Positions 1-64,000 of a stretch of 64,000 nt of DNA are shown here, one piece after another; position 1 is the first letter of the stretch; every line of letters starts with the position of its first letter. Under the pieces are notes generated by a model. That model saw nothing but the letters and a program-made list of their open reading frames with translations. It did no database searches and was not told the DNA's origin. The position numbers and the translations under genes are program-made. Where the stretch lies: IMG/VR virus record IMGVR_UViG_3300044675_005311, positions 1 through 64,000 of that record; one strand, given 5' to 3'. This stretch comes from a virus.

Positions 1-267
1 ACCATTGCGTGAGGCGGTTTCGTACGTTACAACTTCAAAATGATTGCCGAAGCGATACTCCAACCATACTATGTTTAATCCCCAACGCTTATCGCACTCA
101 TTGATAAAATCAAGTGTTTGTGGCATTTCTTTGCCCGTGTTTTGAAAGGTTACTATGTAGTTTTCGATACCTTCATCTATCAAACGCTTGGTTAGATACG
201 CGGAGGTTCTACCACCGCTAAAATTTATGACATTTACATAGTTGGTGATTTTGGTTTGTTTTTCCAT
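1..267 (-). CDS. PAPS-reductase (phosphoadenosine phosphosulfate reductase) family protein, 3' part outside window
   Basis: Manual translation from ATG at 267: MEKQTKITNYVNVINFSGGRTSAYLTK...VTFQNTGKEMPQTLDFINEC; PP-loop SGGxTS plus NTGxE motif. Confidence 0.8.
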   Translation of the reverse strand, partial: MEKQTKITNYVNVINFSGGRTSAYLTKRLIDEGIENYIVTFQNTGKEMPQTLDFINECDKRWGLNIVWLEYRFGNHFEVVTYETASRNG

Positions 268-303
268 TATTCTCATTCAATATTAGGTAATTTAAAAGGA
301 AGA

Positions 304-336
304 CTAGTCGCAAAAGTTTACAAGGTTTGCGACTAG
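304..336. repeat. Perfect 11-bp inverted repeat (possible terminator/processing hairpin)
   Basis: CTAGTCGCAAA-N11-TTTGCGACTAG, intergenic. Confidence 0.7.
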
Positions 337-342
337 CGAGGA

Positions 343-558
343 TTAGAGTTTAAGGGCTTTGGCTATTTGGTACGCCCCCCAAAATGGTTCGGGGTACTTG
401 GTAGGGTAAACATCATAGTTCTCTTCCTCAATCGCGTCTATGAGAGCGCGTTGTTCGTCGGTTTCTCCTTCGGGTAAATACTTGGTTAGGATTTCCCATA
501 CTTCTACCCAATATAGTATTGGGTGTAGGGTTGGCTTGTTATTTTCTTCGTTATTCAT
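343..558 (-). CDS. hypothetical protein
   Basis: 71-aa ORF, ATG with A-rich leader, same strand as neighbours. Confidence 0.6.
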   Translation of the reverse strand: MNNEENNKPTLHPILYWVEVWEILTKYLPEGETDEQRALIDAIEEENYDVYPTKYPEPFWGAYQIAKALKL

Positions 559-928
559 ATTTTTATTTTTTATAATTTATTTGTTTGATTTAATTTAAGG
601 TTACTAAAATTTACTCATCATTATCAACTATCATAACACCCTCGTGTCAAAAAGGTAAAAAACGTGCTTGCAAGTCGGCCATTTTTGACCCCGAAAAACC
701 ACCCAATTTTGGCCTTTTTTTGCACACTTTCGCACACTTTTTTGTTCATTTTTATTTGGCTTTGAATTGTACATAAGGTCAATGTTTTCTAAGGGTGACG
801 CAATTTTCATATTTTCACTTTTCGACAAGTCGTGCAAGTTGCAAAAACGTGAAAAAAAAGGCTATTTTTATTTGTTGTAACAAATGTCGTTGTGTTAATA
901 ACTATGGGTAATTGTGGATAAACCCGAT

Positions 929-1138
929 TTATCCATTTGAACTCACCTCATTTTTTAATTGCTCATTTTGAATTAAAGTTTTGTTGGGTTTGGATTTTTT
1001 AATTTCCCAACCATCATTGGTGGTTGCCCATTGGATTGACATTTCTTGAGAGCGTAGCAATTTCCAACGACATTCTTTTTCCGTCCCTTGGAATTTCACA
1101 ACACCATTGTGTAGTAGGTCAAAAATATCGTTTGCCAT
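929..1138 (-). CDS. hypothetical protein
   Basis: 69-aa ORF coupled (TAATG) to the upstream gene. Confidence 0.65.
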   Translation of the reverse strand: MANDIFDLLHNGVVKFQGTEKECRWKLLRSQEMSIQWATTNDGWEIKKSKPNKTLIQNEQLKNEVSSNG

Positions 1139-1362
1139 TATCTTAATTCTAAATTATGATTATTGAGCATCTCGTGAAGTTTGTCACGCAAATCACAATA
1201 TGCTTGGTATTTTTCGGGTGGTGTAGAGTCGGGTGCATATTTGGTTTCGTTCCGCAAGTGTTGGTCTAGTTCCCAAACTAGCAATGACCACTTCCATCCA
1301 TTTGAAGCATCTTCAAATTGTTCTTGGTCTTCGGGTAGGTTAAATTCAAGGATTGCTTTCAT
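1138..1362 (-). CDS. small phage protein (MKAILEFNLPED-type)
   Basis: 74-aa ORF in a tightly packed leftward operon. Confidence 0.7.
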   Translation of the reverse strand: MKAILEFNLPEDQEQFEDASNGWKWSLLVWELDQHLRNETKYAPDSTPPEKYQAYCDLRDKLHEMLNNHNLELR

Positions 1363-1606: not shown

Positions 1607-1953
1607 TGCTCACCTCCTTGTATTTTGTTACGCATCCAAGTTGCACCACCTAAATATGATACATCGTAAGGGTCAAATTCATCAAACTCCATACCATCCA
1701 ACTCCATCATTTTTTTAATCTCCTCATCACTTGGTAGTTGGATGTTTTGTCTACCTATTTTAATTATGCAATCCATACATACATTGTGAGTAGATTTTGA
1801 CTCATCACAATTTATACATAACGAATCACTTGGTAGTTCGATAGGCAAATGATTTTTAATTTCTTCTTCTACATCAGTTTCCCTTCTTGCAATACCATCA
1901 AATTTTCCAAGTTGATAAAACAATTTCAGATGTTCTTCTGTGTATAGTTTCAT
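1603..1953 (-). CDS. hypothetical protein with internal I(E/Q)LPSD repeat and CxxC pairs
   Basis: IELPSD...CINC...CMDC...IQLPSDEE; ATGA overlaps on both sides. Confidence 0.7.
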   Translation of the reverse strand: MKLYTEEHLKLFYQLGKFDGIARRETDVEEEIKNHLPIELPSDSLCINCDESKSTHNVCMDCIIKIGRQNIQLPSDEEIKKMMELDGMEFDEFDPYDVSYLGGATWMRNKIQGGEQ

Positions 1954-2189
1954 TGCTCACCTCCTTTATGTATTGGGTTTTTGCAGTTGCCTTTGTGACA
2001 TAGAATATTACCCTTGTAATTCTTACAAATGAAGTATTCACATCCTTCAATTACACATACTTTAATCGGGTCTGATGCTAAACTACCTTCACTTGCTATT
2101 GTGTAGTTGGTAGTTTTTGATGATACTGTTGGTTCCGTGCAACCACTTATTATTCCGATAAGTAATGTTGCTAATAATAGTTTTTTCAT
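1950..2189 (-). CDS. putative small lipoprotein
   Basis: MKKLLLATLLIGIISG-C lipobox-type signal; Cys/His-rich C-terminus (HKGNCKNPIH). Confidence 0.65.
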   Translation of the reverse strand: MKKLLLATLLIGIISGCTEPTVSSKTTNYTIASEGSLASDPIKVCVIEGCEYFICKNYKGNILCHKGNCKNPIHKGGEQ

Positions 2190-4784: not shown

Positions 4785-4972
4785 CACCGAAAGAAAAAGC
4801 CAAAGAACTGGTTGATAAATTCACAGTGGTTGGATTGCAACAAAGAAACGAAGGGATTCAATGTGCATTAATTGCAGTTGATGAAATAATAAATGTAACG
4901 GCAGGATTAAAAGGTTGGATAGATGGTTTTCAATATTGGGAAGTGGTAAAACAAGAAATACAAAAACTATGA
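4781..4972 (+). CDS. small phage protein (MTPKEKAKEL-type), paralogue 1
   Basis: PKEKAKEL...CALIAVDEII...YWEVVKQEI. Confidence 0.75.
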   Translation: MTPKEKAKELVDKFTVVGLQQRNEGIQCALIAVDEIINVTAGLKGWIDGFQYWEVVKQEIQKL

Positions 4973-7010: not shown

Positions 7011-7020
7011 TAAAATTAAT

Positions 7021-8168: not shown

Positions 8169-8438
8169 ATGAAAACCCCTAAAATCTTTATTCTCAAAAT
8201 CAATTCCCGTCCGCCGTGGGAAGTTCAAGAACCCAAGTTGAATTATGTTTCGGACTATGAATATACAACGAGGACTTACGATGTGTGTGACTTTGACTAT
8301 GGCGCACAAAAGTTCACTTTAGAAGAAGCAAGTAAAATCGCTGCCACCCTAAACAAAATTCACCTCAATTACACCGAAGTAACTATACCAAAAGAATATG
8401 GAAGCACAACACTACCAAGCAAAGGGATTAAATTATAA
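8169..8438 (+). CDS. hypothetical protein
   Basis: 89-aa ORF in operon. Confidence 0.6.
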   Translation: MKTPKIFILKINSRPPWEVQEPKLNYVSDYEYTTRTYDVCDFDYGAQKFTLEEASKIAATLNKIHLNYTEVTIPKEYGSTTLPSKGIKL

Positions 8439-9069
8439 ACGCGCATTTTATGTCGCCGTCGGTGTCGTAATTGCATTGTTGGTGTTATACTTAAAAAATG
8501 GCGATGGCGACTTTGACCTACAAAATCAAAACACCTATTTCAAAAGTACCATTGATAAAAATGGTAGAGAAATAGTAGAGCAACGACAACAAATAATGAG
8601 TTTGAAAGTTGCGCTCAAGAATAACCTTTTGGAAAAGGAAAAGTATATGAAGTCAATTTCTAGCCAAACCAAGGTGGGTACAAAAACCATTATTGAGAAA
8701 GTGTTTGTGCCTTACGAAGTTGAAAAGAAAATCTATGTAGATAGCAATACTTTTGATACGACATACTATGTGAAAACACCAATTCCCGTGAGTTGGAAAG
8801 ACTCTTGGAATTTCTTTGGCGGTGTAGTTAAACACGATGGTTTTCACATTGATAGTTTTGGCTCGGAGAACAAAATGCGAATTACGATTGGAGAGAAAAA
8901 ACGCGGGATATTCCGCAAGGCCGAACCGATTGTAGAAATCAAAAATGAGAACCCAAAAACACGGGTGACGGCGATGACTAACATCACCATAAAACAAAAA
9001 CCGCCCTTTTATCAAAGGTGGTGGTTCGTTGGTAGTTTGGCTTTAATGATAGGAAAAATTTTATTATGA
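8398..9069 (+). CDS. membrane-anchored coiled-coil protein (possibly spanin-like)
   Basis: N-terminal TM, coiled coil, C-terminal FYQRWWF plus hydrophobic tail. Confidence 0.55.
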   Translation: MEAQHYQAKGLNYKRAFYVAVGVVIALLVLYLKNGDGDFDLQNQNTYFKSTIDKNGREIVEQRQQIMSLKVALKNNLLEKEKYMKSISSQTKVGTKTIIEKVFVPYEVEKKIYVDSNTFDTTYYVKTPIPVSWKDSWNFFGGVVKHDGFHIDSFGSENKMRITIGEKKRGIFRKAEPIVEIKNENPKTRVTAMTNITIKQKPPFYQRWWFVGSLALMIGKILL

Positions 9070-9338
9070 TACACGAACCACATAACCGAGTTGATGTCAC
9101 CACACCCCAAGGGGATGGTGTAATTTGGCTAGTTACGGAGTACGGACACGAAACCGATACGATGTACACAATCATTTTGAACAATGGTGAAATTTGGCAA
9201 TTCACCCATAAGGACATTCGCGTTAAAGACAATGTAACCTTTAACCGAGTGTTTACAAAAACCGAAAAGCCTAAAGTTGGTACGGCGGTGTTGAATAAAT
9301 ATTTTTCATCCGAAAATCCCGCTAGTGGAACTAGGTAA
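9066..9338 (+). CDS. hypothetical phage protein
   Basis: VTTPQGDG...YG...NGEIW; ATGA overlap. Confidence 0.65.
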   Translation: MIHEPHNRVDVTTPQGDGVIWLVTEYGHETDTMYTIILNNGEIWQFTHKDIRVKDNVTFNRVFTKTEKPKVGTAVLNKYFSSENPASGTR

Positions 9339-9341
9339 ATT

Positions 9342-10259
9342 ATGAAGACGGCAATAGTTATTGGTGCGAGTGGTATGGACGGCTCATTAATGAGTGAGTT
9401 ATTGCTTCGCAAAGGGTATATGGTTCACGGAACTTACAATACCAACAAGCGTTGGGTGGAGAACTTGTTTCACCCGAATTTCACTTTGCATCATTTTGAC
9501 CTAGGACGGCAAGAGTTATTCCACCAATTTGTATTGAACATCAAGCCCGATGAAATTTACAACTTTGGAGGTGTTACATTTTCACCCGATAGTGAGCGAT
9601 TGCCCGACTACACCAAGGAGGTGAATTACAATGCCGTAATGAAGATTATGGAGGTTTGCTTTCACAACGACATCAAGTTTTTCCAAGCATCGTCGAGCGA
9701 AGTTTTTGGCAACATCAAGAATATGGAGTTGAACGAGCAAAGTGCAAAATTTGCACATACCCCATACGCCCAAGCCAAAAAGAATGTGGATTCGTATATG
9801 GCTTATATGAGAGAACAAGGTGCTAAATTCTACAATGCTATTTCATTCAACCACGAGTGTGAACGAAGAGGTAAGCATTTCGTCACCGCTAAAATTTGCA
9901 ACTTCGTCAAGGAGTTACGACACGGGGGTTCGCCCAACTTTTTGAAACTAGGGAGTCTTGATTCAAAACGCGATTGGGGTTACGCACCCGACTTTGTAGA
10001 AGGGTTCTATGCGCAAATGCAAGGAGAACCTACCGACTTGGTATTCGCTACGGGTATAGTCCATAGCGTACAAGACATATTGGAGTGCGCCTTTGCCCCG
10101 CACGGATATAAGTGGCAAGATTACGTCACCATCGATAGCACTTTCATTCGTAATGATGAGAGAAACAATATTTGGGGTGATTATTCCAAAGCCAAAGAAA
10201 CAATTGGGTGGCAACCAACAACTAAATTTGAAGACTTTATATACAAAATGACACTATGA
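9342..10259 (+). CDS. gmd: GDP-mannose 4,6-dehydratase
   Basis: IGASGMDGS, PDEIYNF, FFQASSSEVFG, PYAQAK, FNHE..RRG..FVT.KI, LGSLDSKRDWGYAPDFV. Confidence 0.9.
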   Translation: MKTAIVIGASGMDGSLMSELLLRKGYMVHGTYNTNKRWVENLFHPNFTLHHFDLGRQELFHQFVLNIKPDEIYNFGGVTFSPDSERLPDYTKEVNYNAVMKIMEVCFHNDIKFFQASSSEVFGNIKNMELNEQSAKFAHTPYAQAKKNVDSYMAYMREQGAKFYNAISFNHECERRGKHFVTAKICNFVKELRHGGSPNFLKLGSLDSKRDWGYAPDFVEGFYAQMQGEPTDLVFATGIVHSVQDILECAFAPHGYKWQDYVTIDSTFIRNDERNNIWGDYSKAKETIGWQPTTKFEDFIYKMTL

Positions 10260-10870
10260 GCATACATTCCTATTCCCAATTTGGCGAAGACGCATTCATC
10301 GCCCAACACTTTGACCCCGAATACAAAGGTATTTGCATTGACATTGGCGCAACCGATGGAATTGGAATGTCCAACACTTACCACTTTGAGCAACACGGGT
10401 GGAAGGCGATTTGCGTAGAGGCCAACCCCGCTATGATTCCGTCGCTTACTCAAACACGAGCCAATGCCGTACATTGCGCGGTTGGGCAATACAACAACAA
10501 AGAGGTGGAGTTCAAAGTAGTCACGCTAGAAGGCGGAAACCAAACGGCAATTAGTGGATTAGAACTAGACCACCGATTGATGGAGAGCCACGCGTTCTTA
10601 AATCCACAAGTGAGCATCGTGAAAGTTCCCGAAAGAACCCTAGATAGCATTATTGAGGATTTTGATTGGGTTACTCACATCGACTTTGTATCGATTGACA
10701 CGGAGGGTACGGAATTGGATGTCCTAAAAGGATTTGATATTCCCAAATGGAACGTGAAGATGTTTTGCATCGAGAACAATTTTAACGACCCCGAAATTGA
10801 ACAATACCTAGCAATGTTTGGTTATCGCAAAGTAAGGCGACACGAAGTAAACGACTTTTATACATTATGA
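10256..10870 (+). CDS. FkbM-family methyltransferase
   Basis: YSQFGED, IDIGATDG..SNT, VEANP, IDFVSIDTEGTELDVLKG. Confidence 0.9.
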   Translation: MSIHSYSQFGEDAFIAQHFDPEYKGICIDIGATDGIGMSNTYHFEQHGWKAICVEANPAMIPSLTQTRANAVHCAVGQYNNKEVEFKVVTLEGGNQTAISGLELDHRLMESHAFLNPQVSIVKVPERTLDSIIEDFDWVTHIDFVSIDTEGTELDVLKGFDIPKWNVKMFCIENNFNDPEIEQYLAMFGYRKVRRHEVNDFYTL

Positions 10871-12210
10871 GCAACAATTCAATAGACAAAGGAACACAAG
10901 GATATTTAAATTCTATGAGCCAAAAGGCGATGGAAGAATATGTAAATCCCACAATGAATAATATGAGCCACAAATTAATAAATCTAGGAAGTATGTACAC
11001 TTCCGACTTTATCGAGAATCCAAGCGAAGCGAATGGTCGTAAAACATATTCACTTGATTTGGTTTGGAACGAAAAGTTAGGATGCCCAACTTTGACCGAG
11101 CAACCGAGCGGTGAAGAAATGTGGGGTAAATATTGGTATAAGAGCGGTACAAATAGGTCAATGAAAATTGCTCTTTCGGATGTTGTTGAAGGTGTCTTAT
11201 CGCACAAGAATATGAAACACTATTTGCTTGACAAAAAGAAAGTTTGGCTTGATATTGCTTGTAACGATGGCACTCTTTTATCTTATGTAGATAGCAAAGC
11301 GTTTTTTCTTGTTGGAATTGACCCAATTGAAGATAAATACATAGACGAGGCTAAAAAATATGCGGATAGCGTAGTTCAAGATTATTTCACCTACGACGCT
11401 TGGGGAAGAGCCAACTCACCAAAGAAGGCCGACGTGGTTACGAGTATTGCGATGTTCTACGATTTGCAAGACCCATTCACTTTTGCACAAGACGTGGAGA
11501 AAGTGTTGGATGACTATGGTATTTGGGTGTTACAACTTTCGTACACTCCGCTTATGATTAAGCAACTTGCCTTTGATAATATTTGCCACGAACATTGGGC
11601 TTACCACAACCTTTCTAGCGTTCAAAGAATCCTTGCTACGGCGAATATGAAGGTATTAAATGCCGAGTTAAACGATGTCAACGGCGGGTCAATTCGTATT
11701 TACGCGGTCAAGAACAATGCGAATATGAATCTTTTTGGTAGTGCGCCCAAGCGCGACGTATGGGCGATGAATGTCCAAGCGTTGTTTAATAACGAGCATC
11801 ATTATGAGAATTTACCAACGTGGCTAGATTTTGCCAACAATGTTTCAATCTTGAGAATGAAAACTACCGACTTTATTGATAGGGCGAATCGTGAGGGTAA
11901 AAGCATTTGGGGTTATGGCGCAAGTACAAAAGGGAATACTTTGTTGCAATACTTTGATTTGGATAATACCAAAATAGAGGCCATAGCCGAACGCAATCCC
12001 GACAAATGGGGATTGCACACGATTGGAACGAACATAGTCATTAAAAGCGAAGAGGATATGCGTGAAGCACAACCCGACTATGTGTTGGTATTACCTTGGC
12101 ACTTTATTTCGGAGTTTTTAGTGCGCGAAAGTGAGTATTTGCAAAAGGGCGGTGCGTTCATCGTTCCTTGTCCAAACTTTAAAGTTTACACTAAGGAGGA
12201 TTTGAAATGA
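10867..12210 (+). CDS. NDP-hexose C-methyltransferase-like protein
   Basis: YWYKSG, LDIACNDGTLL, FDNICHEH, NGGSIR, GYGASTKGNTLL, PDYVLVLPWHF. Confidence 0.85.
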   Translation: MSNNSIDKGTQGYLNSMSQKAMEEYVNPTMNNMSHKLINLGSMYTSDFIENPSEANGRKTYSLDLVWNEKLGCPTLTEQPSGEEMWGKYWYKSGTNRSMKIALSDVVEGVLSHKNMKHYLLDKKKVWLDIACNDGTLLSYVDSKAFFLVGIDPIEDKYIDEAKKYADSVVQDYFTYDAWGRANSPKKADVVTSIAMFYDLQDPFTFAQDVEKVLDDYGIWVLQLSYTPLMIKQLAFDNICHEHWAYHNLSSVQRILATANMKVLNAELNDVNGGSIRIYAVKNNANMNLFGSAPKRDVWAMNVQALFNNEHHYENLPTWLDFANNVSILRMKTTDFIDRANREGKSIWGYGASTKGNTLLQYFDLDNTKIEAIAERNPDKWGLHTIGTNIVIKSEEDMREAQPDYVLVLPWHFISEFLVRESEYLQKGGAFIVPCPNFKVYTKEDLK

Positions 12211-12458
12211 AAGTAACCATAGGAAACTTGATTGACCAATTGAGCATCGTCAACATAAAGATTTGGATGGCGGAGGATGTGAAACGCGACCCCAATGCAA
12301 CGGATGCCGACATTGCCAAGGCCACGCGAACGACCAACATTGCCAACCAACAACGCAACGACTTGATTCAAGCCATTGATGAAGGTATGAATGCAATAGC
12401 CAAAGGAGAAACCCAAAAACTTTACAAGCAAGGGGAGAGCAAGATGTATGGCAAGTAG
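12207..12458 (+). CDS. DUF4254-like helical protein
   Basis: TIGNLIDQLSIVNIKIW..ED..R...NQQRNDLIQAIDE. Confidence 0.65.
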   Translation: MKVTIGNLIDQLSIVNIKIWMAEDVKRDPNATDADIAKATRTTNIANQQRNDLIQAIDEGMNAIAKGETQKLYKQGESKMYGK

Positions 12459-13164
12459 CATATTGGTAAGTGGCAAGTTGGGTGATTTGATTCATTCGAT
12501 GTATGTTTCAAAGCACCTCATAGAGCGACACAACATCCGTACTAAAATATACATTACGGAAACCATAGAGCCGTTTGAAAACGGGGTGCATAACACAAGG
12601 GCGGAACTACGCCCCATAATCCGACAACAAAGAGGTAATGATGGTTTTGAAATATGGGAAGGGCAACCGATTGAATACAACACAACGCTATTTCGCAATA
12701 GCCCACTTTTGTATCGTCGGTGTTGGACGGAAATAATGTGCAATTTATTTTTCCCAAACGAAGAGCCAATAAGCGGTGGATGGATGACTTACAATGAAGT
12801 TCGTAATTGGGATTCTACACTAGTCATTAATCGTCGCTACAAAAATCCAATGAGCGACCATATTCGGGATTCGTACTTATTGCAAATTCAACAACACGAA
12901 AATAGAATTTTTTTAGGAAGCCAAGCGGACTATGAAGCGTTCCCGTTAAAGGAGTATTGCAATTTGGTTATACCCGCAAATATGGAGGATTGGTTTACTT
13001 ACATTGCCAAGTGTTCAAAGTTTATGGGAAATCAAAGCGCACCGCTTGCAATAGCAAGTGCTTTAAACACACCAAGGGTGGCGGAATTGCTACCTACACA
13101 ATACCCCGATTGGGTGCATTATTGGGGTGAAGAAAAGTATGGTGACATTTATTTTGTGCAATAG
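12448..13164 (+). CDS. GT-B glycosyltransferase (GT9-like)
   Basis: SGKLGDLIHS N-terminal motif; FMGNQSAPLAIASAL C-terminal motif. Confidence 0.7.
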   Translation: MASSILVSGKLGDLIHSMYVSKHLIERHNIRTKIYITETIEPFENGVHNTRAELRPIIRQQRGNDGFEIWEGQPIEYNTTLFRNSPLLYRRCWTEIMCNLFFPNEEPISGGWMTYNEVRNWDSTLVINRRYKNPMSDHIRDSYLLQIQQHENRIFLGSQADYEAFPLKEYCNLVIPANMEDWFTYIAKCSKFMGNQSAPLAIASALNTPRVAELLPTQYPDWVHYWGEEKYGDIYFVQ

Positions 13165-13167
13165 TTT

Positions 13168-13194
13168 GTTATTTTCTAAAATAACCTATATTTG
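13168..13194 (+). promoter_or_regulatory. Perfect operator palindrome plus -7 element
   Basis: GTTATTTT-CT-AAAATAAC-C-TATATTTG, ATG at 13200. Confidence 0.8.
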
Positions 13195-13199
13195 CACCT

Positions 13200-13502
13200 A
13201 TGTCAACCAAATTAGAGTTTATACATAAGTATTCACTAGCGGAATATTCTACCATCAAAGGTGGTAAAATGTTATTGAAAGATGGTCAACCTTGTAAGTG
13301 TCACAAGGTTGGCCCTAACATCCTACCCAACAATTTGTCGGGTGATTTAGTACCCGTTTATGAGCATTGCACTACACATTGCACGAGGGCGTTATTGGCA
13401 CTTGAAGAAGGTGTGATAATGTACATTCAAACGTGCGAAGTGCAAGCGCAAAAGTTTCCAATGGAAAATGCGGAAGCAAAATCCAAGATTGAAAAATTGT
13501 AA
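13200..13502 (+). CDS. hypothetical Cys/His-containing protein
   Basis: 100-aa ORF after promoter; CKCH, CTTHC. Confidence 0.7.
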   Translation: MSTKLEFIHKYSLAEYSTIKGGKMLLKDGQPCKCHKVGPNILPNNLSGDLVPVYEHCTTHCTRALLALEEGVIMYIQTCEVQAQKFPMENAEAKSKIEKL

Positions 13503-13521
13503 AAAACCACCTCCCTAAAAT

Positions 13522-13935
13522 ATGAAACAAATGAACTTATTCGGGTCATTGTTTGCGCCCAACAACGAAGAAAAAAAGTATTCTTCTAAAATTGAAGCAC
13601 CCGTGTACGAACCAAAAAATGCAAAACCGCATATTTTAGAATTGGTCAACAAAGAGAAAACTCATAGGTTGATGCGAGAAATAGAAAACTCCAATTTACC
13701 CATAGAAGAAAAGACTTTTTTGATTGATTCGGCGAGAAGGCACAACGTATTTAATTATGCAAAAATCGCGGACTATTACGCACAAGCGTCACCCGAAATG
13801 CAACACTTGATGGAACGAAGTGCCTTGGTAATTATTGATTTTGAAAAAGCGGTGGAATATGGGTATGTGAAATTGTGTGATGAAATACGAACACAATATT
13901 TGGAGGAATACGGAGAAACCGATAATGGAGAATAA
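13522..13935 (+). CDS. conserved phage protein typically adjacent to TAGT-like glycosyltransferases
   Basis: KIEAPVYEP...EEKTFL...RRHNVFNYAKIADYYA...LMERSALVIIDF. Confidence 0.65.
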   Translation: MKQMNLFGSLFAPNNEEKKYSSKIEAPVYEPKNAKPHILELVNKEKTHRLMREIENSNLPIEEKTFLIDSARRHNVFNYAKIADYYAQASPEMQHLMERSALVIIDFEKAVEYGYVKLCDEIRTQYLEEYGETDNGE

Positions 13936-14755
13936 AGATTTTGCGGTTTTTATTATGGTGTATGGTAGACCCGAAAAAAATTGGACTTACGATACCTTAA
14001 AAAAATGCGGGTATAGTGGTAAAATTTATCTTGTAGGGGACAACACCGATAGCACTATTGATGCGTATAAATTAAAGTATGGGGAGGAGTTGTTGGTGTT
14101 TGATAAAAAAGAAGTAGCCAAAAAATATGATGCGGGTGATAATAGCGGTGATTTGCGGAGTACGATGTATAGTGCCAACACAATATTTGAACTAGCGAAG
14201 GAAAACGGGGTCAAGTATTTTTGTTTGATGTGTGACGATTATTATTACTTTGGGTATCGTTACGATACGGGTGCAAGGATTATTAAAAACTTGGATGCGG
14301 TATTTGATAGTATGGTTGAATTTTACAAAAGCACCAATATAAAAACTATTGCGTTTTCGCAAGGTGGCGACCACATCGGCGGATTCAATAGTACTTTCCG
14401 TAGAAAGGCTATGAACTCTTTTTTTTGTTCGACGGATAGACCTTTTGAATTTATGGGTAGACTTAATGAGGATGTAACCACCTACGTTAATTTAGGTGGT
14501 AAAGGGGATATTTTTTGCACTTTCCCATTTTTACAATTAGACCAAAAAGACACGCAAAAGTCAAAGAGTGGATTGACCGATGTTTACCTAGACAATGGTA
14601 CTTACGTAAAGTCGTTTTTTTCGGTGATGTACAATCCCTCTTGCGTTAAAGTTTCGGTGATGAATGCAAACAATAAACGGATTCACCACTCGATAAAATG
14701 GGTTAATACAACCCCAATGATAGTGAGCGATAAATACAAGAAAAAACAAATATGA
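13925..14755 (+). CDS. TET-associated/GREB1-like glycosyltransferase (candidate DNA modification)
   Basis: VFIMVYGRP, MCDDY, QGGD, RKAMNSFFC, GRLNEDV, YLDNGTYVKSF, RIHH; ATG 13925. Confidence 0.7.
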   Translation: MENKDFAVFIMVYGRPEKNWTYDTLKKCGYSGKIYLVGDNTDSTIDAYKLKYGEELLVFDKKEVAKKYDAGDNSGDLRSTMYSANTIFELAKENGVKYFCLMCDDYYYFGYRYDTGARIIKNLDAVFDSMVEFYKSTNIKTIAFSQGGDHIGGFNSTFRRKAMNSFFCSTDRPFEFMGRLNEDVTTYVNLGGKGDIFCTFPFLQLDQKDTQKSKSGLTDVYLDNGTYVKSFFSVMYNPSCVKVSVMNANNKRIHHSIKWVNTTPMIVSDKYKKKQI

Positions 14756-16014
14756 CAAAGAAAATATTAGCCTATATGGACTTTATGTGTCCCACGGGTT
14801 TCGGAACTGTTTCCCACAACGTAATGGATAGATTAACCCCTTGGTTCAAGCGGGTTGGTATTGAAGTTGATGTGGCTTGTTTGAATTATGGCAATCGTCA
14901 AACCGAACAATATAATGACCAAATTATGGCCGTCAATCCAAAGATGTTCGCTCGGAATGAAGAGGACTATTACTATCGTGATGGTATTCTCAAGATGTTG
15001 CAAGTGGGTGACTATGATTTGCTATGGTGTATGAATGATGTACCCGTGCTAGGGCCTATGTCACCAATTCTTCGCCACCTCCGTCAACAAAAGCAATTCC
15101 AAAAACAAAAGGAGTTCAAGATGCTAATGTACACCCCGATTGATAGCGTTCCATTTGCGCGTTACTTTAAGGATTTAGATGTATGGGACGAAGTGTACAC
15201 CTACACCGATTATGGTCGTAGAGAGGCGGAGAAAGCCTTTCAAAAGGTCAATAAGCGCAAAATGAAGGTGGGCATTATTCCGCACGGAATGAATAGGTAC
15301 GAATTTCAACCTTTGTTTGACAAGGAGTCATTGCGCGTCAAGTACGACATACCACAAGGTATGTTTTTATTTGGAAATGTAAATAAGAACCAACCGCGTA
15401 AAGATATTGGAACTACCTTGTTAGCGTTCGCCGAATTTAAGAAGTGGTTTGAAGCCCAACCGCCTAATCCAAACTTGCCTAGCAAAGTAGGTTTGTATTT
15501 GCATTGTTACCACTCGGACAAAACGGGTATAAAATTGCACGTTGCTTGCGAACGCCTAGATTTGATTATGGGCAAAGATGTGTTTTTGCCAATCGAGGAT
15601 AAATACAACAACAATTCGTATTCGACCCAAGAAATCAATGAGGTGTATAATTGCTTAGATGCGTTTGTGAGTACGACGACCGCCGAAGGGTGGGGATTGA
15701 CCATCACGGAGGCTATGAGCGTTGGTTTGCCCATTATTTGTGGCAATCATACTTCGCTTACCGAAATGACCGATAATGGAGAATTGGTGTACATCGTGAA
15801 CGACTTAATTCCTCACTTTCAAATTGAAGATGCGGAAAATGTGCGGATGGTGTTAAATCCAAAAGCCGTTACCGAACAAATGATAAACGTCTTTAATGAT
15901 GCGCCGTTAAAAAAATGGTCGGTGAAAAACTACCAACACAAGTTTGAAGAATACAATTGGGATAAAATTGCCGACCAATGGAAAATTTCACTCAAAAGAT
16001 TATTGAAGATATGA
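14752..16014 (+). CDS. glycosyltransferase family 4 (GT-B)
   Basis: PTGFGTV, IPHG, NKNQPRKD, YNCLDAFVSTTTAEGWGLTITEAM. Confidence 0.9.
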   Translation: MTKKILAYMDFMCPTGFGTVSHNVMDRLTPWFKRVGIEVDVACLNYGNRQTEQYNDQIMAVNPKMFARNEEDYYYRDGILKMLQVGDYDLLWCMNDVPVLGPMSPILRHLRQQKQFQKQKEFKMLMYTPIDSVPFARYFKDLDVWDEVYTYTDYGRREAEKAFQKVNKRKMKVGIIPHGMNRYEFQPLFDKESLRVKYDIPQGMFLFGNVNKNQPRKDIGTTLLAFAEFKKWFEAQPPNPNLPSKVGLYLHCYHSDKTGIKLHVACERLDLIMGKDVFLPIEDKYNNNSYSTQEINEVYNCLDAFVSTTTAEGWGLTITEAMSVGLPIICGNHTSLTEMTDNGELVYIVNDLIPHFQIEDAENVRMVLNPKAVTEQMINVFNDAPLKKWSVKNYQHKFEEYNWDKIADQWKISLKRLLKI

Positions 16015-17152: not shown

Positions 17153-17846
17153 GGGGTATTGGACTCCCTTTTTGATTTAATGGGAAGATATTCATCGGAA
17201 GTATAACAACGTAAAAAGAGTAGTTATGAGATTATGTGAATTTGATTGTTCAACGGGTTTGATTAATGTTTTGTATCACGATAAAATAAAAGATATATCC
17301 GTTAGAACATCAACGATTGCGGATATGTTATTAATTGACAAACTGCAAAAAGAAAATAGTAAAGCCGTTGGATTTATTCAATCAACTATATGGGATAAAT
17401 ATGTGTTTGGTGGTGAACGGAATTTTGTTGTTTTAATATGCGAGGCAAACAATGATGCCGTTGGTTATGTATTAATCACACCAGGTATATCATCATATCG
17501 GTATGCGAAAATTCAGCAAATATGTGTGCGTGACGACGCAAGAAGATTGCATTACGGAACGGCATTGTTAGATGTGTGTAGACAATTTTGCGTTAAGTTC
17601 CATCGTCTTGGATTTACTTTAAGATGTCGTGTTGACCTCGATTCAAATAATTTTTGGAGGTCGTTGGGATTTACCAATTATGCAACTTGGGAAAAGGGCA
17701 AAATCAATCACGTTGGATTCAAAGCGTCAAACGACATTAATCTTTGGAAAATTGAATTAAATAATAACATAATGCAACTACTATGAACTATCATTAATAA
17801 GTCAAAGATGTCAACAAATTAATTTGGGGTATTGGAATCCTTTTTT
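17153..17846. repeat. 21-bp imperfect direct repeats (terminator-like) flanking the GNAT gene
   Basis: GGGGTATTGGACTCCCTTTTT (17153-17173) and GGGGTATTGGAATCCTTTTTT (17826-17846). Confidence 0.7.
17226..17786 (+). CDS. GNAT-family N-acetyltransferase
   Basis: IQQICVRDDARRLHYGTALL (motif A); SNNFWRSLGF (motif B). Confidence 0.85.
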   Translation: MRLCEFDCSTGLINVLYHDKIKDISVRTSTIADMLLIDKLQKENSKAVGFIQSTIWDKYVFGGERNFVVLICEANNDAVGYVLITPGISSYRYAKIQQICVRDDARRLHYGTALLDVCRQFCVKFHRLGFTLRCRVDLDSNNFWRSLGFTNYATWEKGKINHVGFKASNDINLWKIELNNNIMQLL

Positions 17847-18237: not shown

Positions 18238-21200
18238 ATGGTTAAAAAATATTTAAAGGGTGGCAAAAGCGAGGGTATGTCGCTAAGTGAAGTTGCAAAA
18301 GTTCACAATATGAATGCCGAGCAATTAAGACCCCAACTTCAAAAGGGAATTAAGCACGAACTTGAACACACGGACAAGATAACCGATGCACGAAGAATTG
18401 CCCTAGACCATTTGGTAGAGTTCCCCGATTATTACGACCGCTTGGATAAGATTGAAAAGATGCACTTGGGCGGTGATATGTCAAAACACTTAGCACCCAA
18501 CGGGAAACCTAGTAACCTTACACACGAGCAATGGCACTTGGTACGCACACCCGAATTTAAGAATTGGTTTGGGGATTGGGAAAACGACCCAAAGAACGCG
18601 AGTAAGGTTGTAGATGATAATGGTGAGCCGTTAGTGGTTTATAGAGGGGATAATGCCAATGCTAAAAAAGGATTTGTTTTCAAAACGGGTTTCAATAGAA
18701 TGGGATTTATTAATAAAGATAGATTGCCTAATCAATATTTCCATTATTTTGTAAACAACTATGATGTGGCTTTAGGTTATGGGCAAAATCAAATAGAAAG
18801 CCATAACGAAAAAGTTGAGGAAACGGGGAAAGGTAAATTGTGGGAAGCAAAAGTGACACCTTACTTTTTAAATATTCGGAATCTAATAGATATTACGCCT
18901 AATAATCCATCATTTCCCACTTTTAAAGAATTTGAGAATGAATTAAAAAATGAAATGGGGGAAGAGTGGTTTCAACATTGGAAATATCAACACCCTTATA
19001 ATTATGGAACACGAATAAGCAATAGTTATTTGAATAAATTGTTTGAAGACAAGTTGGGTAAAGATTATTTAGAAGATAGGTACATTTCTAAATGGCAAAA
19101 GGAAGGATTCGCAAATAATAAAACAAATAAAGATTCATATGAATTTTTTATTGAATTTAAAAATAGGAGTTCTTCTAGCGATATTCTTAATAAAGTAGTT
19201 CGTAGTATGTTAGAAAAGAATGTTGATGGTCTTGTGTTTTTGGAATTAACTCATTGGGATGGTGGATTTTGGGGCAATTATAAAAAATATGAATCGGGGG
19301 AATTAAAATATGATTACAAAAGATGGATAGAAAAGCCAAAAGTGTTTGCGACTTTAAATTCCAATCAAATCAAGTTAGCCGATGGCACGAACACTACATT
19401 CGATGGTGAGAACCTCGATATTAGATATAAGCGTGGTGGACGCACAATATCGCAAACACCCGCACCCAAGTCGGATAGAGTCGTTGGTAGCAAAACAAAC
19501 CCAAAAGGGAGTGCTAGTGATAGTAAACTAGGGAAATCAATTAAGTTCAACGATAGCCTAGAAAAAGCCATCCAAAACAAAGTGGATGCGTATAACGAAA
19601 AGCATTCGAGCGACAAAGTGAGTTTGTCAACGGCTAAAGCGATTGTAAGGCGCGGTATGGGTGCATATTCGACATCACATAGACCAACCATAAGCGGAGG
19701 TGCGCCTAATAGTCGCCAAGCGTGGGGATTGGCTAGATTGAATAAGTTCTTGCTAAAAAAGGCGGGAGTGAAAGTGAAAAGTGCTTATATTCAAGATGAT
19801 GATTTGTTGAAGTACGCCAATGGTGGCGAAGTAGTCGCAAAAAATGAGGATATTCGTAGTAATTTTAATACAATGGACAAAGAAGTAAAACACACTATGG
19901 GAAAAGCGGGTGGCTATTTAGTTGGTCGTCGTCACACCGAAGGCGGTATAAAGGCAATGAACAAAGCAACGGGACAACCTTTGGAAATGGAGGGCGGTGA
20001 AGTTGTAATCACGCGCAATGCCGTGTCGGATTCAAAGACGAGAGAGTTTGAAGGGCAAATGCTAACAAACCGCGAAATTTTGTCAAAAATCAACGAGAGT
20101 GGTGGTGGTGTTTCTTTTGAAGACGGCGGTGAGGTGATGGTATGTGGCAACCAATACAACTATGGGGGTACTCTTATGTCCGACCACGATATATTGCATC
20201 AAATGGCCGTTGGTGGCGAATTAGATGATATGAATGAAATGGAGTTTGAGTATGGCGGTGATGTATCGGATTTCAAACTAAAGAATAAGATTGTATTTCC
20301 AATCAACGATGTAGATAGCGCATATTATGTAAACATTTTTGAAGACCCTATGGACTTACAAATATTTAAGGTTGATGTAAGCGTTAGAGGTAGTGGAAGA
20401 CCTATTTTTAAGGGATTTACAAAATGGTCAAAAGATGAGTTCGTATCGAAGAGAAGTTATCAATTCTACAACCGAAAAGATTTTTTGACTCTCATTGAAC
20501 CGCAGGCGCAGACTTATGGGGTGATAACTCCAAGACCATTTACCCAAATACCAAAAAAATCTATGCTTATACCTAGGATGCCAAATACGAGGGCTATGTA
20601 TGATAGGTTTACTTCAATTTTGGACGTTGGGATGCAAAATGTGCCATCTCAATATAATACCGACGCTAAAACTAAATTTAATTGGCTTCTTGGTAATCCT
20701 ACTTTCCAAGAGAATATTATCGAGTTTTTTGATGAGTGGGCAATACAAGAGCCGAACTTTATTTATGAAGAGGGTGTCAAAAAGAAAGTTGTCCGCGCTA
20801 AAAAAGAAGATAAGTTCCAATATGGTATTGAGTCTATAAAGTTTGGTAAAAGTTGGGAGGATGAATTGAAGCCTTACAACAATAAACTTGTAAAGAATGA
20901 TGGTCAAAATTCATTGGTAAATTTACTTACAAAAGTAATTAAAGAATTTTATCTAACCGATTTAACTAATCCTAATTTAAAATTATATGAAGATAGGACG
21001 ATGGAAATACCCGTAAAAGAATTATCATTAATTCAAAAAAATGGGGGTGTTAAAATGGATTATGGTATAACGGCGGTTGGTTTGCGTAATATAGAAATGA
21101 GAACCACCGACCCCACAAGAAATAAATTACTTAATAAAAAATCGGGTTACAATATTAAATTAGTCATAGATAATATTGAAGATTTAGGTGGCGCAAATAT

Positions 21201-22908: not shown

Positions 22909-22911
22909 ATT

Positions 22912-25308: not shown

Positions 25309-25325
25309 AAAGTAAAAAAACACAA

Positions 25326-37038: not shown

Positions 37039-37039
37039 T

Positions 37040-42862: not shown

Positions 42863-42878
42863 GAAAAAGAACAATAAA

Positions 42879-43001: not shown

Positions 43002-43038
43002 TTTTCACAAACACAACTAAAAACTAAAAAATAAAACT

Positions 43039-51992: not shown

Positions 51993-53762
51993 ATGCCACA
52001 AGTAACCAAATCACTATCGGGAAATATCGAGGTACTAAGTGCCAACGGGTTGTCAACTTTTGTAGACGATAACGACGGCCTACTCAAAATCAAAGATACA
52101 AATGGTATCGTTCAACCTATAACCGACTACACGGGCGGTGGGAGTGGTGGAGGTGTTGCGGGTTCATTGAGAACCTATAATTGTTTACCATTGACCTCGT
52201 CGCTAACGTGTATTAGTGATGGTTGTGGGAATATAAGCCCACTTAAATTGTCAACTTGCTTTATGACCAACTATGGTAATGGTGGCGTTACAAGTAATGT
52301 GGTTTTTGGAGATGGCGTTTTACAAGCAAATACAACGGGTAGTGAATTGAGCGCATTCGGTAATGATGCGTTGAAGTGCAATAGTACGGGTACGGCAAAT
52401 AGCGCGTTTGGTAGAGGGGCATTGTTGTCTACTACAAGCGGTTCTTATAACACGGCTTTTGGTGTTGTGGCCTTAGAAAATAATACAACGGGTGCATTAA
52501 ATAATGCGGTCGGAGTTTCTTCATTACGATACAATACAACGGGTAGTTTTAACAATGCTTTTGGTACTTTAGCATTAAGACAAAATACCACGGGTGATAA
52601 CAACAATGCTTTTGGATTAAGTGCATTACAAAACAATGTATCGGGAACTCAAAATGTTGCGATAGGTACACAAAGTTTATTGAGTAACACAACGGGTAGC
52701 AATAATATTGGAGTAGGTACAGCGTCATTGGGTGCAAATCTTGTGGGTAGTGGTAATACCGCCGTTGGTAGGAATGCTCTTAGTAGTAATACTAATTCAA
52801 GCAATAGTGCATTTGGTTTTTGTGCTTTGACAACTAATTCAAGTGGAGGATTTAACACGGCAATAGGCACACAATCCTTATTCTCAAATACTACCGCATC
52901 TTGTAACACCGCTATGGGCTATCAAGCGGGATATTCAAACACAACCGCCGTTAACAACTCATTCTTCGGTTCTAATGCGGGTCGTACAAATACCACGGGT
53001 GGTGGGAACACCGCAATTGGTACTTGTGCCTTTAATTTGAACTCTACGGGAACGGGTAATACGGCATTGGGTTACGTAGCGTTGCAAAACAATACCAACT
53101 CGAATAACACGGGTCTTGGCTATCGCTCTCTTATTTGTAACACAAGCGGTTCTCAAAATACGGGGGTTGGTGTGGATGCTCTTTTTGGCAATACAACCGC
53201 ATCGGGTAGTGTGGCCGTCGGGTATCAAGCGTTAAATTTTAATAACGCGGATTGTAATACCGCCGTAGGTTATCAAGCGGGATTTAACAATAGCACGGGA
53301 AGTATTGTTGCTTTTGGCAATAAAGCGGGATTCTCAAATTGTACGGGAATAAATAATACCGCAATAGGATTTCAATCGTTGTGTGCAAACAGCACGAACA
53401 ACAATAATAGCGCAGTGGGGTATCAAGCATTATTATGCACCACTGGCGCTAATAACACCGCTTTTGGATATCAAGCAGGTTGTGGCAATACGGGAGGGGG
53501 GAGTAATGTTTTTATAGGATTACAAGCGGGGGCTACTAATATGTTGGGGGCAAGTAATTCACTTCTAGGCTATCAGACAGATACAGGCACGTTTAGCGGT
53601 AGTGTTATTTTAGGTCGAAATGCAACAGCAACAGCAAATAACCAATTTGTAGTAGGTAGTGCTGCAATAAACGCAGGTGCAGTTACGACGGAAGTCAATA
53701 CCTCTTCTAAAGTATGGAACGTAGTAATTAACGGAGTAGCACAAAAGATTTTATTAGCATAA
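51993..53762 (+). CDS. fibre/spike protein with 14-aa NTA(F/I/V)G beta-solenoid repeats
   Basis: Many NTTG..NTAxG..AL repeats (YadA-head-like); ATG 51993. Confidence 0.8.
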   Translation: MPQVTKSLSGNIEVLSANGLSTFVDDNDGLLKIKDTNGIVQPITDYTGGGSGGGVAGSLRTYNCLPLTSSLTCISDGCGNISPLKLSTCFMTNYGNGGVTSNVVFGDGVLQANTTGSELSAFGNDALKCNSTGTANSAFGRGALLSTTSGSYNTAFGVVALENNTTGALNNAVGVSSLRYNTTGSFNNAFGTLALRQNTTGDNNNAFGLSALQNNVSGTQNVAIGTQSLLSNTTGSNNIGVGTASLGANLVGSGNTAVGRNALSSNTNSSNSAFGFCALTTNSSGGFNTAIGTQSLFSNTTASCNTAMGYQAGYSNTTAVNNSFFGSNAGRTNTTGGGNTAIGTCAFNLNSTGTGNTALGYVALQNNTNSNNTGLGYRSLICNTSGSQNTGVGVDALFGNTTASGSVAVGYQALNFNNADCNTAVGYQAGFNNSTGSIVAFGNKAGFSNCTGINNTAIGFQSLCANSTNNNNSAVGYQALLCTTGANNTAFGYQAGCGNTGGGSNVFIGLQAGATNMLGASNSLLGYQTDTGTFSGSVILGRNATATANNQFVVGSAAINAGAVTTEVNTSSKVWNVVINGVAQKILLA

Positions 53763-63100: not shown

Positions 63101-63326
63101 ACAAGAAATTGGTGTTAAAAACATCGGTGGCGTGACTACAATCCTTTCGGGTTCTCCTAACAATGGTATAGCCCTTGAAGACCCAAGTATGAACACGGCA
63201 TCTATGAGTTATAGCGTAGGCGGAAGTAATGAAATAGTAATGACGTTCACCGCCCCAATATTTGCGGGTGGCGGAAGTTTGACTATAAAAGCGGTTGCAA
63301 CATTAAGTATCACGGAGGTTCTATAA
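60141..63326 (+). CDS. 1061-aa Gly/Cys-rich fibre/spike protein (beta-solenoid repeats)
   Basis: Dozens of ~15-aa S.(V/I).GG..N.A.G repeats, Cys-rich; globular C-terminal domain. Confidence 0.8.
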   Translation: MSTNKTIGGLSVLSSANIKGCYSLPVWNSDAETTQSACITDILAGVSSIYTLGSGTCSSLRCGVSNTASGNYSASLGGRLNCATGVFSSVVGGCANKSIGYGSSIGGGVNNCVSLACYSTIGGGVNNFINIPYGTSTGSFIGAGSGNTICSNCAFIGGGSGNVVTGNDGFQVITGGQNNNINAAGYSFIGNGLSNSIAGGGLGFNVIGGGRTNTASGGYALITGGLSNTATGISSAILGGGSNTASGACSIVGGGNINCATSNWSSVVGGENNRATNSLSSVVGGFGNIASGYASSISGGVSNNTTCHNSFIGNGKLNTASNYYAAVVGGCGNIASGNSSIIAGGRCNVTTGSFSGILAGQLNCATNSWSSVLGGCNNCATGVFSSVVGGCGNQATGYGSFVGGGISNCATGQCSTVLGGFCSKATGDCSTALGVQSCATSLSNAFGIQARATGFNSLAIGTSASATSTGGVALGINVQTASGIAIGSSALSSGLGSIAIGESTASGGCAVAIGAFNCATGLGALVIGGNCNKALGSPYSSVTGGFSNCAVGCLSFIGGGRNNLACGVCSFIGGGHDNTTTGRDSGVAFGHTNIAGGCCSAVLGGNNNCACGIRSIVVGGFSNASTCDDSVVVGGYDNLSSGAESFVGGGCVNQATNNWSSVLGGCVNCATGVFSSVVGGCGNRVSQYGGFVGGGIGNNVCLVYTADLGLGNQGVIVGGNNNTVCRFGGILTGNTNSVYNGGVVLQGSNNFAQNGGTVLSGYSSCANGGNSIANGQCVCALGGFSIANGLLSTASCNYSFAWGRNQSASCKSMAFGGFNTASGCYSIALGGAFSQGHQVTGNYSNVVGGQNNCTTNTYTSVLGGCGNTASAYASSVLGGYGNIACGCFSSTIGSNSLAYLYGQNALASGQFSARGDAQSSTLISRRSAGSLTSGATMTLSLDGTGTTNLIIPPTGKTWAVKIQYASRVVGVSGSATGVTNNDSKTQTQEIGVKNIGGVTTILSGSPNNGIALEDPSMNTASMSYSVGGSNEIVMTFTAPIFAGGGSLTIKAVATLSITEVL

Positions 63327-63329
63327 TAT

Positions 63330-63686
63330 ATGCCCACCAAGGAAATAAATATAAGTGTCACCAACACCCAAGCGTACACAACGCAAATTTCTATCTTTGG
63401 TGGGCCACAAGACCCGAATAAAAATAGTGTCAATGCGTTCACGTCTTACACTTGGGACACCAACTTAGTAAACTTTTCGGCAAACTATTCATTTACAATT
63501 GAATCTAAGCGTTCTTTTGAGCCAACATTCACAATCATAGAGGGAACTATGAGAAACTCTTTCCTAGGACTTGTGTATGGCTTAAATCAATTAAATATTG
63601 GTATGTTTTGGTACGACACGGCTAGTAGTACAATATATGCTAGTTCGGATGCGTTCGTATTTGGCAATTTGGTATTCCCCGTGTAA
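63330..63686 (+). CDS. beta-rich structural protein; N-terminus similar to the first strands of the capsid candidate
   Basis: INISVTNTQAYTTQISIFGG vs YIITVTNTGSAVSNFDILGS. Confidence 0.6.
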   Translation: MPTKEINISVTNTQAYTTQISIFGGPQDPNKNSVNAFTSYTWDTNLVNFSANYSFTIESKRSFEPTFTIIEGTMRNSFLGLVYGLNQLNIGMFWYDTASSTIYASSDAFVFGNLVFPV

Positions 63687-63692
63687 AAAAAT

Positions 63693-63719
63693 AAAACCAC
63701 CTTTTTTAAGGGTGGTTTT
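63693..63719. terminator. bidirectional terminator between convergent operons
   Basis: AAAACCACC...GGTGGTTTT. Confidence 0.7.
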
Positions 63720-63807
63720 GAAGAAGGAACAGTCACTTCAAAAAAGAAAGTGAATAAATCAAACATAGTAGTTTTATTACTTCACTATCGGAATCTACAT
63801 CACAAAT

Positions 63808-64000
63808 TTACATCGTATCTATTAGATTATCATATATTGAGGCGACTTTTTGTTCCTCAACAACGATTTGGTTATCCTCATCCAACGATAGGATTTTACC
63901 GCCCTCAACCGCATCGTCATACTTAACCGCCATCTTACCTACATAGTCCTTGGGGAGTAGTTTTGCCAATTGCTTCAACACAATCTTTTTAACCATCCAC
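63808..64000 (-). CDS. recT: RecT/Bet-family single-strand annealing protein, C-terminal part
   Basis: WMVKKIVLKQLAKLLPK matches the RecT M..KT.....K.LP motif; reading frame open to the window edge. Confidence 0.65.
   Translation of the reverse strand, partial: WMVKKIVLKQLAKLLPKDYVGKMAVKYDDAVEGGKILSLDEDNQIVVEEQKVASIYDNLIDTM

Follow-up and report, generated by a model that had tools for sequence, protein, structure and literature searches.

Near-absence of the trinucleotides CAG and CTG in a lake-water virus genome: a maintained purge of one clade and a proposed candidate for its reader

What could lead a virus to rid its genome of a word of only three base pairs is the question raised by IMG/VR virus record IMGVR_UViG_3300044675_005311, a single 72,652-bp contig of an uncultured bacterial virus from lake water, the first 64,000 bases of which (the window) were examined for the trinucleotides CAG and CTG, together written CWG. 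A prediction made from the letters of this stretch (the original prediction) held that both words, along with GATC, AGCT, CATG and CCGG, are avoided throughout, and proposed either a host defence keyed to a very short CWG-containing site or many overlapping restriction–modification (RM) sites that share it. CAG occurs 59 times in the window and CTG 44 times, against 803 and 664 expected from base composition and 597 and 496 expected under a first-order Markov model. In 100 shuffles that preserve dinucleotides, the sum of the two words was 1092 ± 28 and never below 1028, compared with the 103 present, and about 94% of the roughly 1,100–1,700 expected CWG sites are gone. The segment at 22921–24000, which had been singled out as free of both words, indeed contains no site, and lies within the second-longest CWG-free stretch (20509..26166; 5,658 bp). 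The longest (8341..14806; 6,466 bp) covers a cluster of sugar-modification genes.

The loss is not accounted for by the proteins encoded or by the overall choice of codons. A codon-permutation null (n = 200), which preserves the proteins and the codon usage of the genome, including its scarce CAG and CTG codons, gave 525 ± 17 CAG and 362 ± 15 CTG in coding DNA, where 62 and 40 were found (102 sites compared with approximately 887). As had been noticed, glutamine is nearly always encoded by CAA (838 codons, to 18 CAG), and CAA and CTA are the most over-represented trinucleotides of all. When the flanking bases were taken into account, every one of the 16 strand-merged NCWGN classes was found to be depleted, with observed/expected (O/E) ratios of 0.00–0.157, so one or two longer motifs cannot explain the loss. 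The avoidance first proposed from inspection therefore holds under all nulls tried, Markov and codon-shuffled alike, and vanishes under neither the codon-preserving nor the dinucleotide-preserving one.

The third base of a codon depends strongly on the codon that follows, in keeping with the earlier impression that codon pairs are bent to avoid CAG and CTG. Among four-fold degenerate NCN codons, A or T is the third base in 72 of 1017 (7%) when G follows, compared with 2323 of 3557 (65%) otherwise, the other 945 of 1017 (93%) before G ending in C or G. Similarly, NNC makes up only 8 of 704 NNY codons (1.1%) before AG or TG, compared with 39.5% elsewhere. At frame-1 sites (N-CW|G-NN), a synonymous change can remove the word only by converting W to C or G, and these sites are also depleted (O/E 0.123), which means that cytosine deamination cannot be the cause. 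Non-coding DNA (3,973 bases) holds 4 sites where 72 were expected. Sense-strand depletion is equally strong for CAG and CTG (O/E 0.069 and 0.055, respectively), the flanks of the survivors are symmetric, with G at −1 in 32 of 102 and C at +1 in 30 of 102, and genes of both strands are purged to an equal degree; symmetric sense-strand loss and flank bias are as predicted if double-stranded DNA is what is read. Selection on DNA has caused the loss, and not mutation bias or an effect on translation. The action at the DNA level that had been proposed is borne out by strand symmetry, by the non-coding loss and by the dependence of codon choice on the next codon.

Other short words are missing alongside CWG. 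AGCT, CATG and CCGG are wholly absent from the window, against 117, 238 and 152 expected from shuffles and 156, 150 and 83 under codon permutation, and GATC is found once, at 43513, against 153 and 177; avoidance of these four words, as listed in the original prediction, was therefore confirmed against expectations of at least 83 by either null. An unbiased word scan, in which words containing already known purged ones were set aside, returned several 6-mers and five further purged 5-mers absent from that list, namely ACSGT (1 found, 100 expected), GCSGC (2 and 41), GGWCC (0 and 64), GTCTC (1 and 102) and GGAGC (2 and 66). Both strands of the whole window (1..64000) are purged of these, of the four 4-mers and of CWG. 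Two words that had been called common turned out otherwise, TCGA being about two-fold depleted (97 compared with 185–201) and GGCC mildly low (72 compared with 109–135); ACGT is also about two-fold depleted (104 compared with 203–258). AGCT, CATG, CCGG, GATC, GGWCC and GTCTC presumably correspond to known Type II specificities. None of the other avoided words explains the loss of CWG in every context.

To place the purge in its family, relatives were collected with a profile of a 336-aa marker protein, encoded by the open reading frame (ORF) at 40884–41894, which yielded 17 viral-contig loci and 44 metagenome loci. AGCT, CCGG and GATC are absent from all 17 viral-contig loci. CATG, GGCC, CTAG, CGCG/GCGC and ACGT are at zero in some of these lineages and normal in others: CTAG is wholly missing from several clades (0 compared with 19–71 expected; loci L057–L066 and L158–L182) and normal in the CWG-purged clade, and GGCC and GCGC/CGCG are missing from still other clades, the set of words being clade-specific. 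Such a mosaic is as expected if hosts differ in their sets of enzymes. Among the 17 loci, a CWG O/E of 0.07–0.14 was found only in the seven closest genomes (G000 and six loci), with values of 0.5–0.75 in two AT-rich lineages and of about 1.0–1.2 in the rest. The seven form one clade with 100/100 support in a four-protein tree, and nine additional loci of this clade from metagenomes (73–100% marker identity) are purged without exception. Maintenance was assessed by comparing the observed differences from each relative with the same substitutions placed randomly. Differences that create CWG numbered 4 relative to L001 (5.7% divergence; 35.9 ± 6.2 expected), 18 relative to L003 (256 ± 16 expected) and 10 relative to L056 (175 ± 13 expected). 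The CWG purge arose as a derived trait in one clade, where it continues to be maintained. Its restriction-avoidance character, as originally read, gains from both results and from the variation of the avoided sets among relatives.

The words lost by different members of the family are nested. CCWGG is low in nearly every member; L060 and L066 additionally lack CCWGA; L004, L005 and L161 have purged CCWGH/DCWGG (O/E 0.06–0.09) and kept other CWG at 0.64–0.70; and in the purged clade CCWGG, CCWGH/DCWGG and the remaining CWG are all purged. Within this clade, depletion is strongest in CCWG contexts and weakest in GCWGC, which accounts for 19–26% of survivors compared with 5–11% of sites in unpurged relatives. 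The purged/unpurged ratio is 0.01–0.08 for seven flank classes that are non-palindromic or TCWGA, and the purge reaches 10- to 100-fold in all asymmetric flank classes when unpurged relatives serve as the reference, with the palindromic GCWGC and ACWGT, which correspond to known types of enzyme, being the least purged. The partial sparing of GCWGC can be seen in the marker ORF itself, whose only CWG are two GCWGC sites at 41181 and 41190 (41181..41194); one or two CWG are retained in this ORF in clade relatives. The nested series of words points to kinship with readers of CCWGG. The reverse pattern was encountered in a distant family member, L188 (a 75-kb metagenome contig with 42% marker identity), in which CWG without a C/G outer pair has an O/E of 0.28 and CCWGH one of 0.65.

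The same CWG purge is present in an unrelated, AT-richer phage lineage, represented by L070 and L071, which overlap over 5.5 kb at 93–95% identity and were therefore counted as one lineage. Their GC content is 30–32% and their CWG O/E about 0.12–0.15, with GCWGC again least affected, and AGCT is not avoided. Within the loci compared, they share with the present genome only the gene for a TET-associated glycosyltransferase (TAGT), which is 73% identical between the two purged lineages, its small partner, and one ORF of 38% identity. At one end of L070 (1–2000), CWG is normal or high (33 and 14 per kb) up to a sharp boundary, after which 13.7 kb follow at about 2 per kb; this end segment looks as if it had been imported recently or treated differently.

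What reads the word is a separate matter. The purge, the symmetry between strands, the effect at synonymous and non-coding positions, the confinement to one clade of the family, the maintenance and the nested sets of sister clades were each observed directly, and suggest that something in the host cuts or marks DNA at a target of about three base pairs. On balance, we lean towards a virus under continuing restriction-type selection whose CWG core is read by one host nuclease of very short specificity; that the agent is a nuclease, that it is host-encoded and that it is a single reader, we infer. Selection against a set of short double-stranded words is still at work, and bears the signature of a virus that escapes host restriction-type nucleases by offering them nothing to cut; the 3-bp CWG core, the most extreme word of the set, would be the target of a single host DNA reader. 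Escape is synonymous, through CAA in place of CAG, no CTG codon, NNT in place of NNC before AG or TG, and NCC or NCG in place of NCA or NCT before G. In about 1,700 codons, the third base would be set by defence pressure in step with the codon that follows. The simplest candidate for the reader would be a relative or relaxed form of a CCWGG-reading enzyme that has lost its outer-base contacts and is weaker on a G...C-flanked core. A dedicated short-site enzyme would also fit, as would relaxed cutting by an abundant CCWGG-type enzyme, which would account for a low cost at each site and make a 3-bp methylase unnecessary. Of the causes named in the original prediction, a DNA-level, restriction-like defence stands, and the short site fits better than many overlapping RM sites, given the depth to which asymmetric flanks are purged and the sparing of GCWGC and ACWGT; the reader itself stays a candidate. 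Only tentatively do we offer the wider picture of freshwater bacteria with a defence that reads nothing but the 3-bp CWG, weaker on GCWGC, as the end of a series shortening from CCWGG through CCWG to CWG in an arms race with word-deleting viruses.

If this is true, all other recognition sites known for cellular restriction-type systems would be longer than the 3-bp CWG. The rewriting of about a thousand positions to drop one 3-bp word, which is still kept out, is indirect but strong evidence that the word is read by something. The computable fingerprint (CWG purged, GCWGC partly spared, CCWG and CCWGG nested in sister clades) could be used to look for the reader among lake bacteria, and could help in host prediction for uncultured viruses.

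Several points weigh against a single host reader of CWG. To our knowledge, restriction enzymes require no fewer than four specified base pairs, shorter sites bringing an enormous load of self-protection, and with a 3-bp system the host would have a site of its own to protect about every 40 bp. Full-text literature searches returned no prokaryotic CWG-specific restriction enzyme or methylase, the matches to ‘CWG’ being work on CCWGG and on plant CHG methylation, and no paper tying CAG/CTG avoidance in a phage genome to RM. The branching order of the five clades of the family is unresolved in the tree, so that CCWGG, CCWG and CWG are to be taken as nested states rather than as a demonstrated sequence of events, and the sparing of GCWGC is only about 3- to 4-fold relative to unpurged relatives, with small counts. 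Finally, a classical cutter should still cleave at the sites that are left, which are compatible with a cutter only if the cost per site is small, if several sites are needed, or if the patches in which most of them lie are recent.

These residual sites are far from evenly spread. Of the 106 CWG in the genome, 69 fall in nine patches that together measure 3.5 kb (4.9% of the genome) and have a near-neutral density (O/E 0.85), leaving 37 sites in 69 kb outside them (O/E 0.023, a 43-fold loss). Uniform placement put a mean of 23 and a maximum of 49 sites in such patches (2000 trials). The share of A or T at frame-1 positions is 47% within patches and 2.9% outside, the patches being defined by the sites themselves. 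Five of the patches are at 1875..2126 (6 CWG in 254 bp, or 23.6 per kb, over two small minus-strand ORFs), 4808..4902 (4 in 97 bp; ORF 4781–4972), 17343..17514 (3 in 174 bp, in the acetyltransferase-like ORF 17226–17786), 31469..31692 (5 in 226 bp, within the 1000-aa ORF 30485–33487) and 36805..37073 (3 in 271 bp). Three more lie in Gly-rich repeats of fibre-like proteins, at 53390..53680 (12 in 293 bp; repeats at the C terminus of the tail-fibre-like ORF 51984–53762) and at 60634–61699 and 62144–62410 (20 and 5 sites), where the 1061-aa ORF 60141–63326 repeats the pattern xxGGxxNxA[ST]G; two relatives only of this ORF, at 40% identity, were found. The ninth, at 42844..43717 (11 in 876 bp), contains the sole GATC of the genome and lies chiefly in a highly conserved 233-aa ORF (43039–43740).

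The patches may reflect tolerance, constraint or recent exchange. That they were imported recently from unpurged relatives holds up only in part. The patch in ORF 43039–43740 is common to the clade members L003 and L056 (9 and 11 sites), and some of the CAG codons of this most conserved structural gene are retained by all family members examined (alignment columns 486, 492 and 664); in a genome where 98% of glutamine codons are CAA, these may be constrained for a non-coding reason. Avoidance of CAG and CTG in frame persists in the patches at 53 kb and 60–62 kb, and only 3 of the 10 rare exceptions to the other purged words are found in or near patches (p = 0.03).

The alternative that retains most credit, and that we nevertheless consider unlikely, is that there is no single reader of CWG and that the purge is the sum of many independent RM sites containing CAG or CTG (CCWGG, GCWGC, ACNGT, CTGCAG, CAGCTG and Type IIS/IIG sites). 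With at least 15 distinct words avoided, the hosts clearly carry many systems, CCWGG is avoided family-wide, words like ACNGT or GCNGC are avoided in some relatives, and CCWG contexts are those most depleted. Such a sum does not readily yield twelve or more asymmetric 5-mer contexts that are all purged 10- to 100-fold while the palindromic GCWGC and ACWGT are purged least, nor a purge that arises as a single unit in one clade and again in L070/L071. According to Rusinov et al. (2018; PMC6286503), moreover, site avoidance is mainly a response to orthodox Type II enzymes and does not extend to Type I/IIG sites; phages seldom if ever avoid sites of Type I, IIG and III, which speaks against a sum of many asymmetric sites.

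It is decidedly unlikely that the virus itself carries a frequent cutter, whether nuclease or nickase, for the destruction of host DNA at CWG, the near-absence of sites serving as self-protection. Precedent is provided by the chlorella viruses, whose 3-base nickases Nt.CviPII (^CCD) and Nt.CviQII (R^AG) are described in PMC3017599, and many ORFs of the present genome have no recognisable family. A check for restriction-type nucleases, covering 86 of the 120 ORFs by Pfam and 5 more by PHROGs only, matched an HNH_3 + NUMOD4 gene at 55157–55735, which lies among the late genes and has 0 CWG inside, and the PD-(D/E)XK partner of RecT. HNH_3/NUMOD4 proteins, however, are of the homing type with long targets (I-HmuI), no restriction-enzyme family was recognised among the 86 Pfam-scanned ORFs, and L070/L071 have only the TAGT gene, its small partner and the one 38%-identical ORF in common with this genome in the loci compared.

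A reader of single-stranded nucleic acid, either a MazF-type toxin endoribonuclease cutting mRNA at a 3-base CWG or the host primase, appears very unlikely. Three-base RNA readers are well known, CTG is the start trinucleotide of Escherichia coli primase, and because CWG is self-complementary, loss of CAG and CUG from the sense strand would mimic a double-stranded loss. Against such a reader stand the symmetric flank bias on the sense strand, the equal purging of genes on both strands, and the company that the purge keeps with classical palindromic restriction words and the nested CCWGG series. As to primase, no polymerase or primase gene was found among the scanned ORFs, so that the virus probably needs the host replisome, and avoiding its start sites would be harmful.

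We regard as most improbable that DNA modification by the virus itself led to the purge as a side effect, with the TAGT-type cluster marking bases in or near CWG and making the sites costly or mutagenic. The TAGT gene (13877–14755; PF20691, E 7.1e-26, 91.9 bits compared with a cut-off of 27.5) and its conserved 137-aa partner upstream (13522–13935) belong to a sugar-tailoring cluster (5905–17786) that also contains three more glycosyltransferase-like genes, an epimerase, a sugar C-methyltransferase, an FkbM-like methyltransferase, a GNAT gene and a ParB-like gene (16221–16988). According to bioRxiv 10.1101/2023.12.21.572611 and PMC13229309, such neighbourhoods accompany post-replicative DNA hypermodification, and a ParB-dependent phage thymine dioxygenase described in the latter prefers NTG. 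The virus DNA may, to judge from these genes, be glycosylated, and similar TAGT genes are found in both purged lineages. When 80 of 354 TAGT loci were kept for comparison, the partner was present in 78, and a CWG O/E below 0.45 was seen in just four (L070, L071, L072 and L077), most of the others lying at 0.8–1.6, so the sugar cluster is not a general cause of the purge. Neither a TET/JBP dioxygenase nor a C5 cytosine methylase, which the 5hmC route would call for, was found in the 86 Pfam-scanned ORFs, with the proviso, made in PMC13229309, that divergent dioxygenases can escape Pfam. No TAGT was found in 10 family records, only 3 of which are at least 90% complete, a blank that does not amount to absence. 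Removal of W in favour of C or G is not something that deamination could produce. A protective TAGT mark directed at GpC was also considered as the cause of GCWGC sparing and was rejected, as it leaves the purge of the GpC-holding AGCT and GCSGC unexplained.

Scarcely credible, finally, are avoidance of a CRISPR protospacer-adjacent motif (CAG or CTG), for which reading on either strand would yield symmetric loss but for which a 94% removal still leaves 106 targets and by our reasoning a tiny benefit per site, and methylation-driven C-to-T decay of the CpG type, which would predict the excess of CAA and CTA but was rejected because it explains neither the W-to-S loss at frame-1 sites, nor the C or G ending of NCN codons before G, nor the total absence of 4-mers.

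Comparison with known systems sharpens what is unusual about the loss. CpG depletion through cytosine methylation and deamination is a genome-wide loss of a very short word, and the excess of its transition products is matched here by CAA and CTA; in contrast to it, the present loss also proceeds by W-to-S change at synonymous sites, reaches 43-fold outside patches and is specific to codon context, as selection and not mutation pressure would have it. CCWGG is read by EcoRII, MvaI/BstNI and PspGI and by the Dcm methylase, the known enzymes of this kind needing both outer C/G pairs. The present word shares with these systems a C-W-G core with an ambiguous central pair, and CCWGG is avoided nearly family-wide with CCWG purged in sister clades; unlike in those systems, every outer pair is purged here, and G...C is the least affected. 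As in the site avoidance of virulent double-stranded DNA phages (PMC6286503), short and mostly palindromic words are lost on both strands through synonymous choice, the set varies among related phages, and four 4-mers are eliminated or nearly so (one GATC is left). The present genome differs in that its main word has only three specified base pairs and a degenerate centre, that no matching enzyme was found, and that about 94% of an expected thousand or more sites are gone rather than tens. The chlorella virus nickases (PMC3017599) show that natural enzymes can specify about three bases with matching methylases alongside; those enzymes are encoded by eukaryotic viruses, are used against host DNA and have non-palindromic sites, and no homologue was identified here.

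As for the host, at least 61% of the words sampled from a 9.9-kb stretch are present in 24 lake-water or freshwater runs from 2016–2025, 15 of which are not flagged as a possible source, so the sequence is not an artefact of one assembly. A Shine-Dalgarno-like word lies upstream of 15 of the 94 ORFs of at least 80 aa, and 12 of the 48 occurrences of TANNTTTG are found in the non-coding 5.5% of the genome. A Bacteroidota host fits the scarce Shine-Dalgarno words, the enrichment of TANNTTTG and the lake-water runs, without this being proof. Cultured phages gave no match either to 24 kb by megablast or to the marker protein by tblastn, no relative of the marker was found in species genomes, and a protein atlas search returned viral clusters only, with no pointer to a host. 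Relatives of the epimerase reach at most 38% identity and are scattered over many phyla, and the tail-fibre-like protein matches repeat domains in phages of many hosts.

A simple ORF call on the record gave 120 ORFs covering 96% of it, 92 of them on the plus strand. Aside from the sugar cluster (5.9–17.8 kb), recognised genes were those for a 1556-aa polyvalent protein with an ART domain, a RelA/SpoT-domain protein, a tail-fibre-like protein, and RecT with its PD-(D/E)XK nuclease; most structural genes had no match, and four ORFs searched against PDB sequences gave nothing usable. For the late genes (38567–59960), a joint scan of 46 ORFs yielded single matches to a sulfotransferase, APS kinase, PAP2, LEA_2 and DUF87 (HerA/FtsK-type ATPase), with no terminase, portal or known capsid family seen among them. 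ORF 12448–13164, inside the sugar cluster, is GT9-like at most, and a tRNA-Met (CAT) at 16996–17068 separates the ParB-like gene from the acetyltransferase-like gene. No terminal repeats were found at the ends of the record; the relative G002 carries inverted terminal repeats. A block of very large ORFs (18238–34602) encodes, in order, the polyvalent protein (DUF5661 + ART-PolyVal), an AAA_5 ATPase, three products of 549–1000 aa without family and, at its end, the RelA/SpoT-domain protein. Neither the AAA protein nor the polyvalent protein has relatives among the viral contigs, and the products of this block look like injected or host-takeover proteins.

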